A stretch of 64,000 nucleotides of DNA, from the NCBI RefSeq assembly GCF_000027125.1, contig NC_017627.1, one strand, 5' to 3'. Below the pieces are notes generated by a model. It saw only the letters and a list, made by a program, of their open reading frames with translations. It had not been told where the DNA came from and did no database searches. The stretch's first letter is position 1, and the number at the start of each line of letters is the position of its first letter. This document shows, piece after piece, positions 19,911-51,355 of the stretch. This DNA comes from Escherichia coli 042 (GTDB lineage Bacteria; Pseudomonadota; Gammaproteobacteria; Enterobacterales; Enterobacteriaceae). Made by a program: the position numbers and the translations under genes.

Positions 19911-22900
19911 TCAGTCTCCGCCCAGGGTTTTCTCTTTCTGCAGGTCACGGACCATATCCCGCTCCATCTGCTGCAGACGCTCCTGCAGCAGATTTTCCCG
20001 GGCAACCTCCCGGACCGCTTCCCGCTCCCGTTGTGATTCACGCAGCACACTCTCCGGCAGTGCGGTTTCCCGTTCAGAAGTGGCAGTCCGGTCACGTTCC
20101 TGCCCGGCAATCTCCCTGACAGCCTGCTCTGTTTTGCCATCCGGCAGGTCAGGTTTGTTCTCTGCCATTTTACGGACAATTTCATCTGCGCGACGTTCCG
20201 TTTCACGGCGGATGGCCTCTTCAGCCTGCCGCTGTGCCAGCACTTCAGCTGTAACCGGTTCACCATTTCCGGCCCCCGGCTGGACGCTGTTATCCGGGAT
20301 ATCCCCCCACACGCGGCCACCGGTGATGGCACCGGGATTCCACGGACGACCTTCACCGGCAATTCTCACCACCACACCGCTGTCAGGATTATCACGGGCA
20401 ATCCGGACACCATCCTGCATATTATCAGCCAGCAGGCTTTCTCCGTTACGGCTGCCCTGCAGGGCCACGAACTGCGCATCCCCGCTGCCCTTCACCCGTC
20501 CTTCACCGCTGAATCCCCGCAGCCCGTTTCCGTCATCCGTGGTCAGTGGGTTCAGCCAGATACCGGCGGACCTGCCGTTACGGTCAAACGCCGGCAGTGC
20601 CACATACGGCTGCGGATATTTACGTCCCGGTGCAATAAACCGTGCAGGGCTGTCTCCCCCGGCCAGCCCTGCCTGACGGAGAACGGCACGGCCTGCCGCC
20701 ACGTCCCGCAGTTCCCGTGCCGTACTGAACAGCCGCTCTGCATTCATGACCTCCCGGTCCGGTTTCGGTTCAAACACATCGTGGGCTGTTCCTTTCTGTA
20801 CGGCATTGTTAATGGCATCCGTCCAGCCCTGACGGTTATCGGTGTACACCTGCACATGCTGCTTCATACGCGACAGGGCCACGTAGGCTGACTCAAAGCC
20901 TGCCATCAGTTTCCGGTTACCTTCCGTGCCTTCAAGCGCGATGGCAAAGGTTTCACTCGCCCCCTGCGCACCGTGGGCGGTGATGGCATAGGCCAGGTCA
21001 ATATGTTGCTCTGCCCGCTCCTGTCCGGGGCGAATCACCCGGGTCTGCTGTCCGTCCGACAGCGTGACACTGTCACCGGAAACCGCTGTCACCGTCCAGA
21101 CGCTGTTGGCCACATAACCGCGCTCCCGGTCACTCTTCGTGAAGCGCATCCGGTCGCCGGTTCCCACCCGGATGGTGTCCGGGGTGTACAGTGTGACGCC
21201 TTCAGCCACCGCCTCCCGGGGCGAAATCAGCCGCGTGTTACCTTCCGCATCCTGCAGGGTTATCAGCCCGTCATCCTTACTGACACCGGCAATCCGGTGA
21301 TACACATTATCCACCAGGGCAAGGGCATCCGGGTTATTCTCCCAGGTGGAGAGACGACGCAGTTCCCCGTCGCGTATATTCGCTGTATTCAGGACAGGCA
21401 CCATGACCTGCTCTTTCCCCAGCTCACCGGCCTTTTCCCGTGCATCATGAATCATGCTGTTCAGTACGCGCCGGTCCTCATTCAGGTGCGTGACAATCAG
21501 CGTCTGCTCCCGTGCTTCCGGTGTCCTGCCGGTATAGTCGCGGACAATGGCTTCATACAGTGTCATGGGGACATCCGGGAAAGCCTCGCCTTTCAGCATC
21601 GCCTTCTGCTGCGCTTCTGCCAGTTTCGCTTCCTGGCTGTGACTGAACTCCGTCACGGAGTGCTCCGGTGCCCATGCGCCCTCCAGACGTGGCACCTGAG
21701 ACGGTTTCACACTCTCAAGCCCGGACAGTGCCCTTTCCACATCCCGGTTAATCAGGCTGTATACCGCCTCCCGCAGTTCCGGCGTCTGACGCACAATCTC
21801 CTTCATGATGACCACATCGGCAGCACTGCGCGTCTGCTGGAGACGGAAAGGCTGACCGGGCGCGATGGCCTGCAGCTGGTCCGTGTCACCGCTGGCCACA
21901 GCACGACCGCCACCGGCCGCAATCAGGGCGTATGCCCGTGCCATGTCGGTATTGCCCACCATTGAGCTCTCATCGAGCAGGAACAGCGTGTTGCTGAAAT
22001 CCGGCGTTTCTCCGCTGCGCTGCTGCAGCTGCGTGTCATGCAGAAAGGACGCCAGCGTCTGTGCATCCACGCCGGCGCTGCGCATCTCACCGACCGCACG
22101 GTGCGTGGGCCCCAGCCCCACAACTCGGGGACGCTCACTCGCCGGCAGCATGTTCACGGCTGACATCACCGCCCGGAACTGTGTGGTCTTACCCACACCG
22201 GCATAACCCTGTACCACCGTGAAACGGTCGGACGTTTCCAGTATCATGCGGGTGGCGGCACGCTGTCCTGATGTCAGTTTCTCCATGAGTTCGCCAGGTA
22301 CTCTCTCCATCAGCGGCGTGACCGCCTCCTTACCTTCGAGAATATGGCGAAGAATGCTCTTTTCTGCCTCATACGACGCACGGGAAACCAGCAGGCCTGT
22401 GCCATAGCCTTTTGCCACATCCACATACAGTAAATCACCGCGTTTTATCTGCGCATTGATTTCCCCTCCCAGTTCAGTAAAACCGGTTCCTTCTGCAGCA
22501 AACGACTTCGCCTCTGTCAGCAGGTCCACCATGCTGAAGGCCAGGTTTTTACTTTCCAGCACAGGAAGGGCCAGATGAATGGCCTGGTGTGCCGGCGTGT
22601 GCAGCCCGGCTTTCTGCAGACTGATAGCGGTTTCCAGCGATGTCTCACCGGCCCGCGCCTTTATCTGCTCAGAAACCACCGTAAAGGAGGGATGGCGGGC
22701 AAGTTTTTCCGCAGTACGGGTTTCATCCAGTGAGGAATACAGCCGGACATCACGACCGCTGCGGGCCAGACCGTTCAGGGTGGCGTTGTCCATTGCCATC
22801 TGTGTGACGGAGGCAAACACCGTCGCACTGTCACTGACGGAATGCCCGGGCGTTTCCACCCAGCCGTTCTCCAGCTTCAGTGCCGTGAACGGTGAATCGC

Positions 22901-25181
22901 TCACAGGCAGGGAGGCCGGTTCAGCCCGCCCCGGCACAACAACCGTCATCGCATCTTCACTGACGGATGCCACCTGCAGGCGGTCACCGCCGGAGACGCG
23001 GAGTCCGGGAATTTTCCCTGTCACCCTCAGTCGCTCGCCGTCTGCCACCGGCATTTTTTCCGGCCGGAACAGCGACCAGCTGCTGTCCAGGGAGGAAATA
23101 CGCACCACCTGCGTTTCGCCCTGCGCATCCCGCAGGGTCAGGCTGTGACTCTGCGCTGTCACCCGGTCTATCACATAGCGGTCATGACTGCGTGTCTCCG
23201 GGTTCCACTGCTCCATCACCATCCCCGGTCGGTACATATCCCGCAGATAACGGCTCCGGCTGTCCAGCCAGACCGGTGACAGTGCAGTCATGGTCACCTC
23301 AGGGTGTCCGAGCACGCCCTGCGTTTTCAGCTCACTGCGAATGGCCTGTGTCAGTATGGCCTGTTCCCGTACCCCGCTGACCTGTGCCACGCTCTCTTCT
23401 CCGGCTTTCACGCTGGCCGCAAAATCTCCGGCCAGCCGGGCATAGCGGACATTACGGTCCGGTTCACTGATGATGGTGGCCGGTCGCTGTTCTCCGCCCT
23501 GCCAGCGATATGTGTTCACCCCGGCATCCTTCATGGCCATCAGCGCACTGCCTGTACCGGTTCGCTGCCCGCTGTCGGTTATCAGGACCTGTACGTTATG
23601 ACGTGCGGCACCGTCCAGCAGGGTTAACGTCTCTTTCAGGGAGAGTTTTTCGCCCTGGTCGACGATAACAGTACTGCCCGGCGTGAAGGCCATGCCCTCC
23701 TGCAGCTGACGACGTCCGGTTATCAGCTCACCGGACAGCCGTTCATCCTGCTTCAGGTTCATCTGCGAGCGACGGTCAGCGGCGATAATCTGCATCTCCC
23801 GCCCCTGCTCCCGGGCCATCATGACCAGTTCAGCCACCCGCTCACGCTGCCCGGCTGCACCGCCCTGCCCGGAAACAATGGCCAGCGACGGACGGTCCTG
23901 TGCCAGAACACTGACCGCATCGCTGTAACCAGCCGTCCGGGGGACACTTTTCTCCGGATGTACGGTCACCCGGTTCTGTTTCATGATGTCACGACTGAGT
24001 GCCCGGACGGACAGCTCATCGAGCACATGAATTCCTGATGTGAACAGCCCCTTCTCACGGTCGAGGGGGATAAGCTGCTCACGACTGATGGCCTCATCGA
24101 TACCGGCGCGTGCCCGTTCAATCACACCATTTTCCGGCGGCAGTATACCGACCGTTCTGGCCAGCACGTCCGTGTACGTAAACTGCACTTTTCGTTCACT
24201 TAATCCGGCAATGGCCTGTGTCACCGCCTGCTGCACATCCGGCCCCTCCTGTGAAACAGCCCCGGGCGCCTGCGTGTGGGTCTCCGCACGCTGATCCGCC
24301 GCGTCACGATATGCCCGGATGTCGAACCCGGTTTCCTTCAGCGTCTGCATCCATTCAGCCATTCTGACTTCAGGATCGACGTGCTGTTTGGATTTTCGCG
24401 TATCCAGTGCCGCCACATCCCGGGATTTCAGTGAGGCCCCTTCACCGACGGCCTCCCGGATAGCCTGTGAGCGTCCGGAGAAGGCTTCCACCGGTACGCC
24501 CGGCATCTCCCACATACCGTGCTTACCGACCACTTCGGTTTCATAGCCCAGTGCCTCAACCTGCTCTTTCAGTTTTTCCCGGTAGAGCCTGCCAAAGGCA
24601 ATCTGATTAGCGTACACATTCTCAATGAACCCCGTTTTCCCCACTTTGTCACTGCTCAGTGTCTTCCACTCACCGTTATGCTGCGTGACATTAGCCACCA
24701 CCGCATGCGTGTGTAACTGTGGTTCCTGATCGCGACTGGTGTCGTGGTTAAACAGTGCCATCACCAGATTACCGGTCAGTACCGTTTCTGACTGTCCGTC
24801 CGTCATCACCCGTGTGGAGGCCAGCGCCTCCACCTGACGAACAGCAAAGTCCACGGCCTGGTTATGTGCATCAATCAGGCGCTTATCGCCACCTAACATG
24901 GCCATCATGGAGACACTTTTGGGGGCGGAGAAGGTCAGGTCGTAGCCGGGACGATGCTTATTACTGCCATCCTGCATGCGGCTTAGATCCGCTCCGTCCG
25001 GCAGCCTTCCCTCCAGAAGACGGGTAAAAACATCCTTATCGACACTGCCCTGCAGTCCCAGCTGTTCAGCCCCCCTGCCGGCCCAGCGTTCTCCCATGCT
25101 GCCCAGTACATAGTAATTATCCTTGTCGGTATAATAGTTACCGGCACTTCCGGCCGATCTGACCTGCGCGATACTCATCAT
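19911..25181 (-). CDS. traI: relaxase/helicase TraI
   Basis: 1756-aa product; relaxase N-terminus, helicase Walker A ..GYAGVGKTT..; start overlaps the traD stop. Confidence 0.95.
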   Translation of the reverse strand: MMSIAQVRSAGSAGNYYTDKDNYYVLGSMGERWAGRGAEQLGLQGSVDKDVFTRLLEGRLPDGADLSRMQDGSNKHRPGYDLTFSAPKSVSMMAMLGGDKRLIDAHNQAVDFAVRQVEALASTRVMTDGQSETVLTGNLVMALFNHDTSRDQEPQLHTHAVVANVTQHNGEWKTLSSDKVGKTGFIENVYANQIAFGRLYREKLKEQVEALGYETEVVGKHGMWEMPGVPVEAFSGRSQAIREAVGEGASLKSRDVAALDTRKSKQHVDPEVRMAEWMQTLKETGFDIRAYRDAADQRAETHTQAPGAVSQEGPDVQQAVTQAIAGLSERKVQFTYTDVLARTVGILPPENGVIERARAGIDEAISREQLIPLDREKGLFTSGIHVLDELSVRALSRDIMKQNRVTVHPEKSVPRTAGYSDAVSVLAQDRPSLAIVSGQGGAAGQRERVAELVMMAREQGREMQIIAADRRSQMNLKQDERLSGELITGRRQLQEGMAFTPGSTVIVDQGEKLSLKETLTLLDGAARHNVQVLITDSGQRTGTGSALMAMKDAGVNTYRWQGGEQRPATIISEPDRNVRYARLAGDFAASVKAGEESVAQVSGVREQAILTQAIRSELKTQGVLGHPEVTMTALSPVWLDSRSRYLRDMYRPGMVMEQWNPETRSHDRYVIDRVTAQSHSLTLRDAQGETQVVRISSLDSSWSLFRPEKMPVADGERLRVTGKIPGLRVSGGDRLQVASVSEDAMTVVVPGRAEPASLPVSDSPFTALKLENGWVETPGHSVSDSATVFASVTQMAMDNATLNGLARSGRDVRLYSSLDETRTAEKLARHPSFTVVSEQIKARAGETSLETAISLQKAGLHTPAHQAIHLALPVLESKNLAFSMVDLLTEAKSFAAEGTGFTELGGEINAQIKRGDLLYVDVAKGYGTGLLVSRASYEAEKSILRHILEGKEAVTPLMERVPGELMEKLTSGQRAATRMILETSDRFTVVQGYAGVGKTTQFRAVMSAVNMLPASERPRVVGLGPTHRAVGEMRSAGVDAQTLASFLHDTQLQQRSGETPDFSNTLFLLDESSMVGNTDMARAYALIAAGGGRAVASGDTDQLQAIAPGQPFRLQQTRSAADVVIMKEIVRQTPELREAVYSLINRDVERALSGLESVKPSQVPRLEGAWAPEHSVTEFSHSQEAKLAEAQQKAMLKGEAFPDVPMTLYEAIVRDYTGRTPEAREQTLIVTHLNEDRRVLNSMIHDAREKAGELGKEQVMVPVLNTANIRDGELRRLSTWENNPDALALVDNVYHRIAGVSKDDGLITLQDAEGNTRLISPREAVAEGVTLYTPDTIRVGTGDRMRFTKSDRERGYVANSVWTVTAVSGDSVTLSDGQQTRVIRPGQERAEQHIDLAYAITAHGAQGASETFAIALEGTEGNRKLMAGFESAYVALSRMKQHVQVYTDNRQGWTDAINNAVQKGTAHDVFEPKPDREVMNAERLFSTARELRDVAAGRAVLRQAGLAGGDSPARFIAPGRKYPQPYVALPAFDRNGRSAGIWLNPLTTDDGNGLRGFSGEGRVKGSGDAQFVALQGSRNGESLLADNMQDGVRIARDNPDSGVVVRIAGEGRPWNPGAITGGRVWGDIPDNSVQPGAGNGEPVTAEVLAQRQAEEAIRRETERRADEIVRKMAENKPDLPDGKTEQAVREIAGQERDRTATSERETALPESVLRESQREREAVREVARENLLQERLQQMERDMVRDLQKEKTLGGD

Positions 25182-27532
25182 CAGAAATCATCTCCCGGCT
25201 CAACATCCTCCCCACGCTCCCGGTGCACATTAATGTTCACCTCTTCACGACGCTGCATCTGCTGCTGGATGTCCGGATGATTTTCCTGTTGCCATGCCTC
25301 ATAAGCGGCCATATCCACCACTTCACCGGATTCACTGATCCCGGGTGGCAGTTGCTGTTCCATCTCTTCTTCCGGTTTCATTTTCAGCTCCTGCTCGATC
25401 CCCCCTGCCGGAACACTCACACCTGCATCTGACTTCTTATCATTGATGACAGAAGACACTGGCTGTTGTGACTGTTGTGACTGTTGTGGCTGTTGTGGCT
25501 GTTGTGGCTGTTGTGGCTGTTGTGGCTGTTGTGGCTGTTGTGGCTGTTGTGGCTGTTGTGGCTGTTGTGGCTGTTGTGGCTGTTGTGGCTGTTGTGGCTG
25601 TTGTGGCTGTTGTGGCTGTTGTGGCTGTTGTGGCTGTTGTGGCTGTTGTGGCTGTTGTGGCTGTTGTGGCTGTTGTGGCTGTTCAGCCTGAGTTACGTCT
25701 TCTCCGGAGGCAACCTCCGGTTCGAAGAGGCTGGCCATCTGGCGACCTTCTGCTTCCCTTGCAGCAAGTACGGCACTCAGACGGTTCTCCATTTCCGGGT
25801 TGATGTCACGCGGAATAAACTCCGGAGCGACCTTCGGTCGTGTCTGATATTTCAGGGAGAGTTTGACTGCCGGATACGGTCCGGGCAGAGTGACATAGCA
25901 GGTCAGATCCGGCAGAGACTGAATGTCGGAATAACTGACCAGCGTCTGACGCTCCATATCCTTACCGGTCGATACCCCGTCACGTACCGGGTCAGCACCG
26001 TAAGAATACTGCTCGCTGGCTTTCAGGTGCTCTTTCTCACCAATTTCACCGGCAGCGAACTCTGCAATCTTATGGCTGGGAGAACGGAAAAAGGCACGGG
26101 TGTTCATGACGTCAAACAGCGTGGCCGCCGCTTTCTCACCGTAGATATCTTCCAGCTGGGCATAGGACTGGATACCAAACACATAACAGCCACCGAACTT
26201 ACGGGCTTCCGGCAGGATCTCCACCAGGTCCGGCAGTTTGTGTAACGTGGGTAACTCGTCACAGAAAAACCACACACGACGATTACGGTTTTCTCCCATT
26301 GCCAGCAGACCACGAATGGCAATGGACAGCCACATGGAGATCACCGGCTTCAGGGAGGCATGGGTGTCGGCATTCGACGAGATAAACAGCCAGCCGTTTT
26401 TCTGATCTTCCCGGACACCACGCATCCAGTCACGGATGGTAAAAGACTCACCGTTATGCTCAATCCCCTGCAGGTAACGGATGGCTTTCACGTAGTTGGT
26501 CAGCACAGCACGGATGGAAATCGCCGTTTTCTCAATTTTCTCTTCCACCAGGTTGGCTGCCGGTGAATTACGCAGGAAGGTACGCAGTTTTTCAATTTTG
26601 ATGGAAAGCAGTGTGTCCACCAGTTTGCTGTAGCTGCGGTTGGGGTCATTACGCATCAGGTACGCCGCTTCCGCAAAAATGGTACGTCCTGAACCCTGCC
26701 AGAACGGGTCCTCTTTTGTGCCCATCGGGATCAGCGTGTTCGCGGTATTATCAAAATCCGGCTGTGTCAGGCACTCCTTCCACAAATCCCAGGCGGCACA
26801 GCGGGCATCCAGCGGATTCAGGATTTTATCGATGGAGGGATCATAGTAACTTTTAACAAATTCCCCCGAACGGTCATAAATCACCACCATATCTCCACGC
26901 TGACGGGCGTAGTTGGCCAGACGACGGATAACTTCCGACTTACCGGCCCCGACCGTGCCGTGCAGACAGAAGTTCTGGATTTCGGAATCCCGGATAATCG
27001 GCAGGTCGCCAATCCGTATATCGGAGTCCTTGCCGTCTTTTTTCAGCATCCGGGCAACATCTTTCGGGTTTTCCGTCAGCTGACGACCACCTGTAACTTC
27101 ATTTTCGCTCTGTTGTTTACCCTGACGCCCCAGAATCCAAGAGACAACAAAGAAGGTGATCAGGCAAATAACCAGTGCCACGACAGACGCCAGAACGAAT
27201 GCGGACCATAGCTGCTCACCGCACCAGATCATATATTTATCATGCAGTACCTGGGCAGCGTTCATCCGGAAGGTTTTGCCGTAATACTGGATCTCATATA
27301 CTGGCTGGGACTTGATTAAATCCCGCATGCCTTCCAGCGTGGTACACCACCAGTAAATACAGCCGTTCACAAACGTCTGCCAGCTTATTTTTACCCATAA
27401 AATCAGACCAACGAGTATCCAGAAAAAAATAAACAGGCAGTAAAGCATGATATTGGCGATCTGGCTGAACATGCGGATACGCATGGACGCAATCTGACCG
27501 CCCTGGGTCATATCCTTTGCGTTAAAACTCAT
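25181..27532 (-). CDS. traD: type IV coupling protein TraD, with expanded C-terminal QQP repeat
   Basis: 783 aa; N-terminal TM segments, Walker A ..GTVGAGKS..; C-terminal (QQP)n array and acidic tail. Confidence 0.95.
25461..25682. repeat. about 24 tandem copies of a 9-bp unit (GGCTGTTGT/GACTGTTGT) encoding the TraD (QQP)n/(QQS) tract
   Basis: Perfect 9-bp periodicity visible in the sequence. Confidence 0.9.
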
Positions 27533-27582: not shown

Positions 27583-28320
27583 TTAATTCACAGAAACAGA
27601 CCAGGTGTACCCTGTATGCCGGTGGTGATACCCGCCTGCAGTCCTGCCGGAAGAGACCTTCTCTGTAACAATGTCAGTCAGGCGCAATACTTCAGACCAG
27701 TCACTCCCGTGCGGAAACTGGATCTGAATAAAAAGGCGTACCCGTTCACGGTGATCCAGAACTGTGTCCGGTTCATAAAAACGGCCACTGTCAGGAGAAA
27801 CACGGGACGTTTTATTGATGAGATCATACTTATCGGCAGGAGACTGCGATGACAGAGACCAGGTAATATTTTCGCCCTGATGACCATCAATACGACTGCT
27901 CCCCGGCGTCCATGCAATTTCCTGCGCACTCGCCACGATGATCTCCCTGGAGACTTCTGCCAGCTTTCTGGGTGTACCGAATACCGGTGCCAGCACACAC
28001 AGGGACAACAAATTACAGCTGACCGCTTCCGGTTTAAGCGAATTGCTCCCGGATTTTTCAGGAAAAGATATTTTTGTCAGTATTTCAGTTAATTCCTTAT
28101 GCCTGAGAGAATTAATAAAGTACATGATAAGCATCATGAGAAACAATATAACAATAAGCCCTCCGATAACCACTAAAAGGTTAGTATCAATATTATTGCT
28201 GTACAGATAGTCTTTAGTGGTCACTGTATTATCCTGTATCACCGGGGGGTATTCAGTTACAGGCTTCTCAGTAAATTGATTATTCTCACCAACATATTCA
28301 GCGATATTGTCTGATGTCAT
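27583..28320 (-). CDS. hypothetical single-pass membrane protein inserted between traT and traD (about 245 aa)
   Basis: Start [10 protein letters not shown].. with SD GGAGAAA 8 nt upstream; one TM helix [22 protein letters not shown]; 5-prime half is AT-rich. No recognisable family. Confidence 0.55.
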
Positions 28321-28522
28321 AATGACTTTCTCCGGAAGATCCCGACTTCGCCGGCAACACTTCACGGTCGCACAAAGAATTTGCACAACCGCTCAGTGTT
28401 TTCATATTTATTTCGGAAACGCCGGGAGGTGACAAAATTTATTTTGTTACATCCCGGGGTTGGACAACGAGCAACGCGAGGCGTCAGCAAGGAGGCCGGT
28501 CAGATCAGCCTCCTGACGAGGT

Positions 28523-29254
28523 TCAGAGAATATTTGCGATTGATTTGGCCAGCTGGTCTTCGAGAACAGGCTTCGCCTCTTCAAATTTCAGGTTAACCTT
28601 GTTCGCATTTGAGACCACACGGGTCTGGTATTTATGCTGGTTACCCGTTTCAGTACTGGTCTGAATTTTCGCACCGGATGTGCCCTGACGCAGGGCGGCA
28701 ACATTATCCGTTGTCACCGTTGCCTTAGTACGCTCTGCAATCTGTACATCCGTGATCATGGTATAGTTCACATCTTCCACCATCGCATCTGCAGCCATAC
28801 CCACCAGACCGGCAGCAAGGCCTACACCGAGTGTGGCACCGGCAGAATTTGAGTTATAGCCGGTAATACCGGCACCTAACGCTGCACCAACAGCTGCGCC
28901 TTCATAACCACGGTTCAGCCATCCCTGAGACTCCCGCAGATCCATCTTATCAGCCTTCAGCACATTCGCCTGAATCCAGTAGTAGGCTTTATCCGGAGAA
29001 GTCACCACCTGATATCCTTTTGCTTTCACAGCATCAGCAATTTTGCCCTGCAGCCCACTCATGTCTTTATCAGACGTGTTTTTGATCTGCAGAAATACCG
29101 TGCGTTCGCTGTCGGGTTTAAGCCAGATGGTCTCACTCATCTGAGTCTTCACCTCAAGGTTACGCTTCTTGATTGCTGTGCTCATCGCACCACACCCTGA
29201 AAGGGCCAGAGTGGAACTGACCAGTGCAACCATCATCAATTTTTTTGTTTTCAT
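28523..29254 (-). CDS. traT: surface exclusion lipoprotein TraT
   Basis: [26 protein letters not shown].. lipobox; 243 aa from the internal start. Confidence 0.9.
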
Positions 29255-29285
29255 CAAATTACCTTTATTACAAACCACAGTTTTC

Positions 29286-29789
29286 TTATCGCCTGTCATC
29301 ATAGTCCTGCCAACAAGTCCCAAAAGTATTTCCTGCTGAATCAAATCCTCCATGCATAGCTAATCCTGTTGCCGGATTAGTACGATAAAAATCCACATAA
29401 TCAAAATTCACATCATCAAAATCCAGATGCAAATCTTCATTAGTTTGTTCATTTACCTGAGATTGCATCCATTCTCTTACACTTACACAACCACTAATTC
29501 GCCTTAATTCGTATAGTGTACCAATGATAAAAACCATCAGGCTTAATAACGGAGAGAGTAAGGAAGATAATGGCATCAGTATATACCAAACGCCTTTACT
29601 GAATTTAAACTCATCCGACACATGCCGTTTTTTTCGTATTTGAGAAAACAACCATATAAACAATCCCTGCCATAGTACAATAAAGCACAGGATAAAAATT
29701 GTTTCGGCACTCCCCCAATCAGCCAGATAACAGGCAATGAACTGTATCACCGTCACCAGAGCAATATGAGCTAAATTTTTCATTATCAT
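29286..29789 (-). CDS. traS: entry exclusion protein TraS
   Basis: 167-aa hydrophobic protein between traG and traT. Confidence 0.75.
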
Positions 29790-50971: not shown

Positions 50972-51355
50972 TTATTCCTCATCATTTTCTGGAAAGAACC
51001 TCTCCATCTCAGATGACACCTTATCCCTGATATCTTCGACCATATTCGCATATTCAAACTTTGGATTCCCGGAAACATGAGGGCTTAGTGACTCAATACC
51101 TAAAATCTTAGCAACTGTTGACTGTGTTTTTACCGCACATTCAAGAAGTACCTTATTAAACTCAGCCTGATTGAACGCTGACTCTTTACGCTCCATCTGA
51201 GCCTCATATACACGAAGCCCTAATTCGAGAAGCATAGTGGATATGCTTGAGAAACTTACATCTGTACTTTTAGCTCCTTCTGCACGTCTTCTTTCCACAA
51301 TTTTATTTATTTTATAGACAATTTCGTCACTGACATAAGCCTGCACTTTCGCCAT
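50972..51355 (-). CDS. traM: TraM (oriT-binding relaxosome accessory protein)
   Basis: 127 aa MAKVQAYVSDEIVYKINKIVERRRAEGAK.. Confidence 0.95.
   Translation of the reverse strand: MAKVQAYVSDEIVYKINKIVERRRAEGAKSTDVSFSSISTMLLELGLRVYEAQMERKESAFNQAEFNKVLLECAVKTQSTVAKILGIESLSPHVSGNPKFEYANMVEDIRDKVSSEMERFFPENDEE

Follow-up and report, generated by a model that had tools for sequence, protein, structure and literature searches.

The traD gene in the 64,000-nucleotide stretch of DNA analyzed here (hereafter the window) contains a long in-frame array of 9-bp tandem repeats in the region encoding the C-terminal extension of the protein. A variable QQP repeat is already known from F-like TraD proteins, and the window carries a long allele of it, which makes the array an ordinary feature of this gene. 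We consider it probable (roughly 0.8) that the array represents a slippage-driven, in-frame and near-neutral length polymorphism of this hypervariable repeat. The features needed for the argument are as follows, with coordinates referring to the window.

25181..27532, minus strand: traD, type IV coupling protein, 783 aa, intact (ORF, BLAST, Pfam)
25460..25683, minus strand: 9-bp tandem array, 24.67 units (Tandem Repeats Finder and sequence reading)
25814..27052, minus strand: folded nucleotide-binding and all-alpha domains of TraD, residues 161-573 (alignment to the solved TrwB structure, 1e9r/1gl6, E 3.5e-47)
25724..25798, minus strand: predicted helix, residues 579-603, N-terminal to the putatively disordered spacer and kept across TraD homologues
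25184..25459, minus strand: the 92 residues after the array, including predicted helices (741-764) and the acidic tail
25184..25228, minus strand: last 15 residues, without variation among the alleles compared; in F TraD the corresponding residues form the discrimination motif that binds TraM
19911..25181, minus strand: traI relaxase/helicase, 1756 aa, its start overlapping the traD stop (annotation of relatives)
50972..51355, minus strand: presumably traM, 127 aa, encoding the relaxosome protein to which the TraD tail binds (judged by likeness to the F TraM sequence and by the position beside traJ and traY)

The array and the gene that contains it

In BLAST searches of plasmids and of E. coli genomes, the ORF carrying the array aligned with annotated traD genes that have traI behind them; such matches numbered in the thousands and came from conjugative MOBF/MPF_F plasmids. 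Pfam searches of its translation recovered the N-terminal membrane domain TraD_N (PF12615, residues 32-128, E 2.9e-35), TrwB_AAD_bind (PF10412, residues 172-561, E 6e-117) and TraG-D_C (residues 419-541), and a Walker A motif (GTVGAGKS) is present, as in TrwB-like nucleotide-binding and all-alpha domains. The gene call made in a preliminary description of this DNA, which relied on the letters alone, is thereby borne out. Since the TrwB structure aligns to residues 161-573, residues 574-783 constitute the C-terminal extension typical of F-like TraD, and this extension ends, like other F-like TraD tails, in an acidic stretch (…EDVEPGDDF) with a terminal aromatic residue.

The gene lies between traT (TraT at 28523-29353) and traI, an order that is annotated likewise in relatives, and the region around it is a complete F-like transfer region. 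FinO, TraT, PsiA, a ParB-like protein and SSB were confirmed by family search; the putative TraX gene and most of the putative genes from traG to traJ were assigned by ORF size and order only. A 267-aa ORF between traT and traD (27583-28386, minus strand) had no NCBIfam match. In relatives, an ORF at this place is annotated as a “hypothetical protein,” and in some of them it and the start of traD share 4 nt. Many traD matches list a “hypothetical protein,” which was considered as a possible antisense ORF within the array but proved to be the ORF upstream of traD. Between traD and traI, some relatives carry a vapBC toxin-antitoxin pair, for example L017 (NZ_CP103530.1, 3135-3760), L023 (NZ_CP043286.1, 3054-3679) and L004 (1676-1764), where L numbers denote fetched loci; the window has no insertion at this junction.

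Tandem Repeats Finder detected a single array in the gene, with a period of 9, 24.9 copies, 99% matches, no indels (0%) and a score of 434. Its plus strand reads (TGGCTGTTG)n; the coding strand consists of 22 copies of CAGCCACAA followed by two of CAGTCACAA and a final CAGCCA, which gives 24.67 units. The preliminary description had placed about 24 units at 25461-25682, correctly on both counts. The encoded product is QP(QQP)21(QQS)2QQP, that is, 74 amino acids at residues 618-691 of TraD. Twenty-two consecutive identical 9-mers cannot have arisen by chance, and the arrangement, identical units joined head to tail with a unit length divisible by three, is that of an in-frame VNTR. Long plus-strand ORFs crossing the array (poly-CCG, VAV and LWL repeats) were discarded as by-products of the repeat, and a PDB match of residues 625-691 to an inulosucrase (8xvp) was disregarded as a low-complexity match.

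Between the array and the last-15-residue discrimination motif lie 77 residues, and 84 separate it from the last 8 residues, which in F make the contact with TraM. The preliminary description had put the array next to the TraM-contacting tail; it does lie upstream of that tail, but the two are not directly adjacent.

Repeat number and its turnover across plasmids and genomes

Repeat number was read out by BLAST with a query that joined the 140-nt upstream flank to the array; the end of the alignment, or the query coverage, then gives the number of units. This one-flank read-out was validated against fetched loci. Two other approaches were rejected: ranking by whole-gene BLAST hid long alleles, as two overlapping pieces give 100% coverage from about 13 units onward, and protein clusters at 90% merged the length variants (clusters of 5,226, 4,229 and 786 members). 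The collections comprised 3,861 matching records in PLSDB and 3,189 among E. coli complete genomes; the records in both are redundant, and some contain sequencing errors inside the array (L008 and L009).

Across 59 evenly spaced rows of the PLSDB ranking, the shortest arrays had 1.67 units and the longest at least 24.67, the median being about 8.67; the minimal 1.67 units of the F type occurred in 13 of the 59 (∼22%). Arrays of at least 16.67 units were found in 236 of the 3,861 PLSDB records (6.1%) and in 183 of the 3,189 E. coli records (5.7%), and those of at least 24.67 units in about 29 (0.75%) and 30 (0.94%), respectively. The window allele is therefore in the top 1% by length of a continuous distribution in which longer alleles exist. 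Fetched loci with traD annotated as intact had 26.67, 27.67, 28.67 and 30.67 units, and the longest allele seen, in pNDM-EC16-50 (L004, NZ_MG515250.1, positions 843-1388), had 60.67 units (546 bp, 182 residues), all of them CAGCCACAA, in frame and with the TraD tail intact. The PLSDB gene table for this plasmid does not list traD. The distribution is not flat, with ∼22% of sampled plasmids at the minimum and arrays of more than 17 units rare, and this skew may stem from the way the repeat mutates or from weak selection that disfavors long tracts. In the evenly spaced PLSDB sample, arrays with CCA as the proline codon reach at least 24.67 units, and those of a CCG-Pro lineage with a 9-bp insertion in the flank stop at about 11.67.

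The statement in the preliminary description that F has fewer repeats was accurate: F-type TraD (717 aa) has QPQQP only. In relatives of more than 95% identity, traD genes are between 2145 and 2343 nt long, with lengths that differ by multiples of 9, and none reaches 2352 nt. A traD allele identical to that of the window was absent from PLSDB and from the E. coli complete genomes, and the exact 783-aa protein was absent from a collection of 15 billion protein sequences, as expected for so variable a locus. Outside the array, the window gene differs from every fetched allele at 35 or more of 2,130 positions, and its closest whole-gene match among E. coli genomes is 98.9% identical (BLAST); the backbone thus appears to be a slightly divergent or mosaic allele in itself.

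At the DNA level each array is uniform, being purely CAGCCACAA in one lineage and purely CAGCCGCAA in another, which points to recent expansion in place and not to an old conserved repeat. L010 and L012 each have a single copy of the marked unit CAGTCACAA near the 3′ end, the window has two, and the doubling looks like the footprint of a duplication of one unit. Changes of copy number on otherwise identical backbones were observed directly. Within a comparison of 14 full traD genes, pairs with 0 mismatches over the 2,130 positions outside the array nevertheless had 26.67 vs. 17.67, 20.67 vs. 1.67, 22.67 vs. 27.67 and 9.67 vs. 7.67 units, differences of 9, 19, 5, and 2 units that amount to copy-number polymorphism. 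The third pair (L014 and L015) comes from two bloodstream isolates of one hospital, and 12.1 kb of their flanks contain 0 mismatches and three single-base gaps. Because identical backbones bear different counts, turnover of the array must be much faster than point substitution. Differences in unit number were uncorrelated with traD sequence distance (Spearman 0.10, p 0.34, for pairs that are not independent). The suggestion that the array is a slippage hotspot fits genes that are identical at all non-repeat positions and differ by up to 19 units, and the literature agrees with it.

Two records, L008 (NZ_CP095084.1) and L009 (NZ_CP114364.1), contain arrays with frame shifts and scrambled units, giving protein runs such as TATTATTATT…. 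These irregularities most likely stem from read errors within the repeat, and errors of this kind can cause traD to be annotated wrongly or missed.

Spacer, tail, and known counterparts of the repeat

AlphaFold predicts residues 607-726 as coil lacking secondary structure, flanked by helices at 579-603 and 741-764; the low pLDDT of the coil (26-36) is soft evidence of disorder, given a model that is weak overall (mean pLDDT 56, from a 22-sequence alignment). The C-terminal extension of TraD has also been described as unstructured in publications including Lang et al. (2011; PMC3245843). From one conserved anchor (LF) to the other (LPPG), the spacer has 124 residues in the window, 58 in F and 108-113 in Klebsiella types. 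The last of these values indicates that spacers of this length occur naturally and lie within the tolerance of the family. A rough random-coil estimate of our own suggests that the reach of the tail could be about 40% above that in F.

Every allele compared, whether it had 1.67 units, 60.67 or a number in between, ended in the same 25 residues, and those of the window equal those of the 717-aa F-type protein (P0002). Comparison of the TraD tails thus revealed no co-variation of the specificity tail with repeat number, and the array does not behave as a plasmid-specificity determinant, for which co-variation with partner residues or lineage would be expected. In published work on F TraD, the terminal 8 residues make the contact with TraM and the terminal 15 serve for discrimination. 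In published truncations, the last 15 residues account for a 10^4-5-fold effect on cognate transfer and the remaining C-terminal domain for ∼10^1-1.5-fold; on transfer of the non-cognate pED208, the domain outside the last 15 residues has an effect of up to ∼10^3-fold. The proposal in the preliminary description that repeat length may tune specificity is not supported, given the invariant tail, the absence of correlation with traD distance, and the location of the major effect in these deletions. We also excluded an ON/OFF phase-variable contingency locus: the 9-bp unit is three codons within the ORF, and clean alleles of 1.67 to 60.67 units are all in frame with an intact tail.

The closest counterpart of the array is the variable “QQP motif” of F, R1, and R100 (Lang et al., 2011; PMC3245843, Fig. 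8), which shares with it the gene, the C-terminal position and the QQP unit. The motif has 5 residues (QPQQP) in F and 23 in R1, in contrast to 74 in the window, where two units are Ser-substituted (QQS); that of R100/NR1 should have 29, judging from a gene length of 2226 nt. The same authors described a possible functional consequence of QQP length as “under investigation,” reported that F and R1 differ in the requirement of TraI and the relaxosome for R17 infection, and named the differing C-terminal extensions, QQP length included, as a possible cause. For F33:A-:B- plasmids, a later study (mSphere 2018; PMC6052338) tabulates the number of 9-bp traD repeats per plasmid, with the unit CAACAGCCG, and notes plasmids that are no more than 3-8 nucleotides apart apart from their repeat numbers in traD and yddA. 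Going by its Table 2, this is the same variable-number locus as in the window, with CCG-Pro units in, for instance, 9 and 11 copies, as against CCA-Pro units in 24.67 copies here.

Among more distant proteins, Klebsiella-type TraD (e.g., P0038, P0040, P0047) has, as in the window, a spacer between the …LF helix and LPPG…EVVD. It is rich in P/A/S/T, low in complexity, proline-rich and similar in length to that of the window, but has no tandem units, and fast length change is not expected of it. QPQQP-type motifs occur at the same site in distant homologues (e.g., Salmonella and Atlantibacter types). Extended non-globular spacers whose length often tolerates change are also found in TonB, with its (EP)n(KP)n tract, and in the proline-rich region of VirB10/TraB. 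They belong to other proteins and compartments, however, and most are not perfect DNA arrays with population-wide copy-number polymorphism. The proline-rich region of TraB is mentioned in a publication on TraD C-terminal truncations.

Interpretation of repeat length and other features of the window

We infer that units of three codons are added and removed, the likeliest routes being slipped-strand mispairing and unequal exchange between identical units; every such change leaves the reading frame intact. The tract would sit within a disordered Pro/Gln-rich spacer leading from the ATPase domain to the distal C-terminal region with its TraM-binding tail, and in such a position changes in length should be tolerated and copy number should drift quickly. 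Tolerance and turnover together argue for near-neutrality. The sole direct effect on the protein would be a longer flexible tether, with the tail that sets specificity left unchanged. A modest effect of repeat length on coupling efficiency may nonetheless exist.

A stronger version of that effect would make the array an adaptive tuning knob, in which the number of repeats determines how far the tether reaches, or its entropy, and selection adjusts relaxosome docking, the recruitment of non-cognate mobilizable plasmids, or sensitivity to R17 and other RNA phages that depend on TraD. This idea, which the preliminary description shares with a speculation that Lang et al. (2011; PMC3245843) offered on the R17 difference, gains some plausibility from the published avidity model, in which several flexible TraD tails reach DNA-bound TraM tetramers and tether length may matter. 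The effects of the C-terminal domain outside the last 15 residues, particularly on pED208, and the retention of a Q/P- or P/A/S/T-rich spacer at this site across distant TraD lineages point the same way. Nevertheless, we regard it as unlikely: copy number varies on identical backbones and is unrelated to traD divergence, the tail is invariant, all lengths from about 2 to 31 units occur in circulating plasmids typed as conjugative, and F, with its 5 residues, is the reference transfer-proficient plasmid. A literature search found no published experiment varying repeat number alone. It is quite unlikely that the locus is an evolvable knob, in which fast and reversible in-frame changes of the tether would explore a trade-off between docking of the plasmid's own relaxosome, recruitment of mobilizable plasmids and exposure to RNA phages, with very long alleles arising from selection and not drift.

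Two further explanations were considered. That 24.67 units is an assembly or sequencing mis-estimate of a real repeat would be in keeping with the frame-shifted and scrambled arrays of L008 and L009, which are typical of read errors, and with the failure to find an identical allele in the collections searched. It is very improbable, though, given that the window array is in frame in an intact ORF with clean units and a sensible pattern of 3′ markers, that arrays of 22-31 units occur in ∼30 independent complete assemblies per collection, and that long reads, like paired short reads, can span a tract of 222 bp. Alternatively, the array might act at the level of nucleic acid, as a C-rich, G-poor and unstructured RNA that serves as a Rho-loading site or as a modulator of translation for the downstream traI, the protein repeat being a by-product. 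The composition of the array (33% C, 11% G) and the position of the traI start 279 nt downstream of it are compatible with such a role, and folding led us to reject RNA structure in the array, its RNA being essentially unstructured (MFE -4.4 kcal/mol over 224 nt, open centroid, z +3.4). The tract nevertheless lies within a translated ORF where ribosomes should shield it, F functions with 1.67 units, vapBC separates traD from traI in some relatives with no matching change in the array, and no evidence ties repeat number to traI expression; we find this explanation scarcely credible. Slippage-driven, near-neutral drift in length thus remains our preferred reading.

As it stands, the array matters little, being a polymorphism already on record for a well-studied conjugation protein. 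It can, however, serve as a fast-evolving marker that separates otherwise identical IncF plasmids in outbreak tracing, and it is a spot of assembly and annotation errors, where arrays are frameshifted and traD is left unannotated. If length did affect coupling, mobilization range or RNA-phage sensitivity, it would offer a simple handle on the spread of resistance and virulence plasmids, and a natural series of 2 to 61 units is available for testing such effects.

A second tandem repeat was detected in the leading region of the plasmid (60045-60130), where a 6-bp unit (GAGCAG) is repeated 14.3 times with a 97% match. It sits between ssb and a methyltransferase-like ORF, and the short ORFs that cross it on the minus strand encode (PA)n(TA)n or poly-Leu. 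In the F33 study (PMC6052338), a 6-bp “yddA” repeat varies together with the traD repeat, and the 6-bp repeat of the window probably corresponds to it. On the cargo side of the plasmid, the window encodes a SafB-like fimbrial chaperone (6490-7248, plus strand) and a 265-aa AraC-family regulator (9080-9877, minus strand), a combination suggestive of a fimbriae-bearing virulence plasmid such as those of ETEC or EAEC. Transposase genes of IS3, IS66, IS256, and IS481, located at ∼250-17450, surround these two genes.
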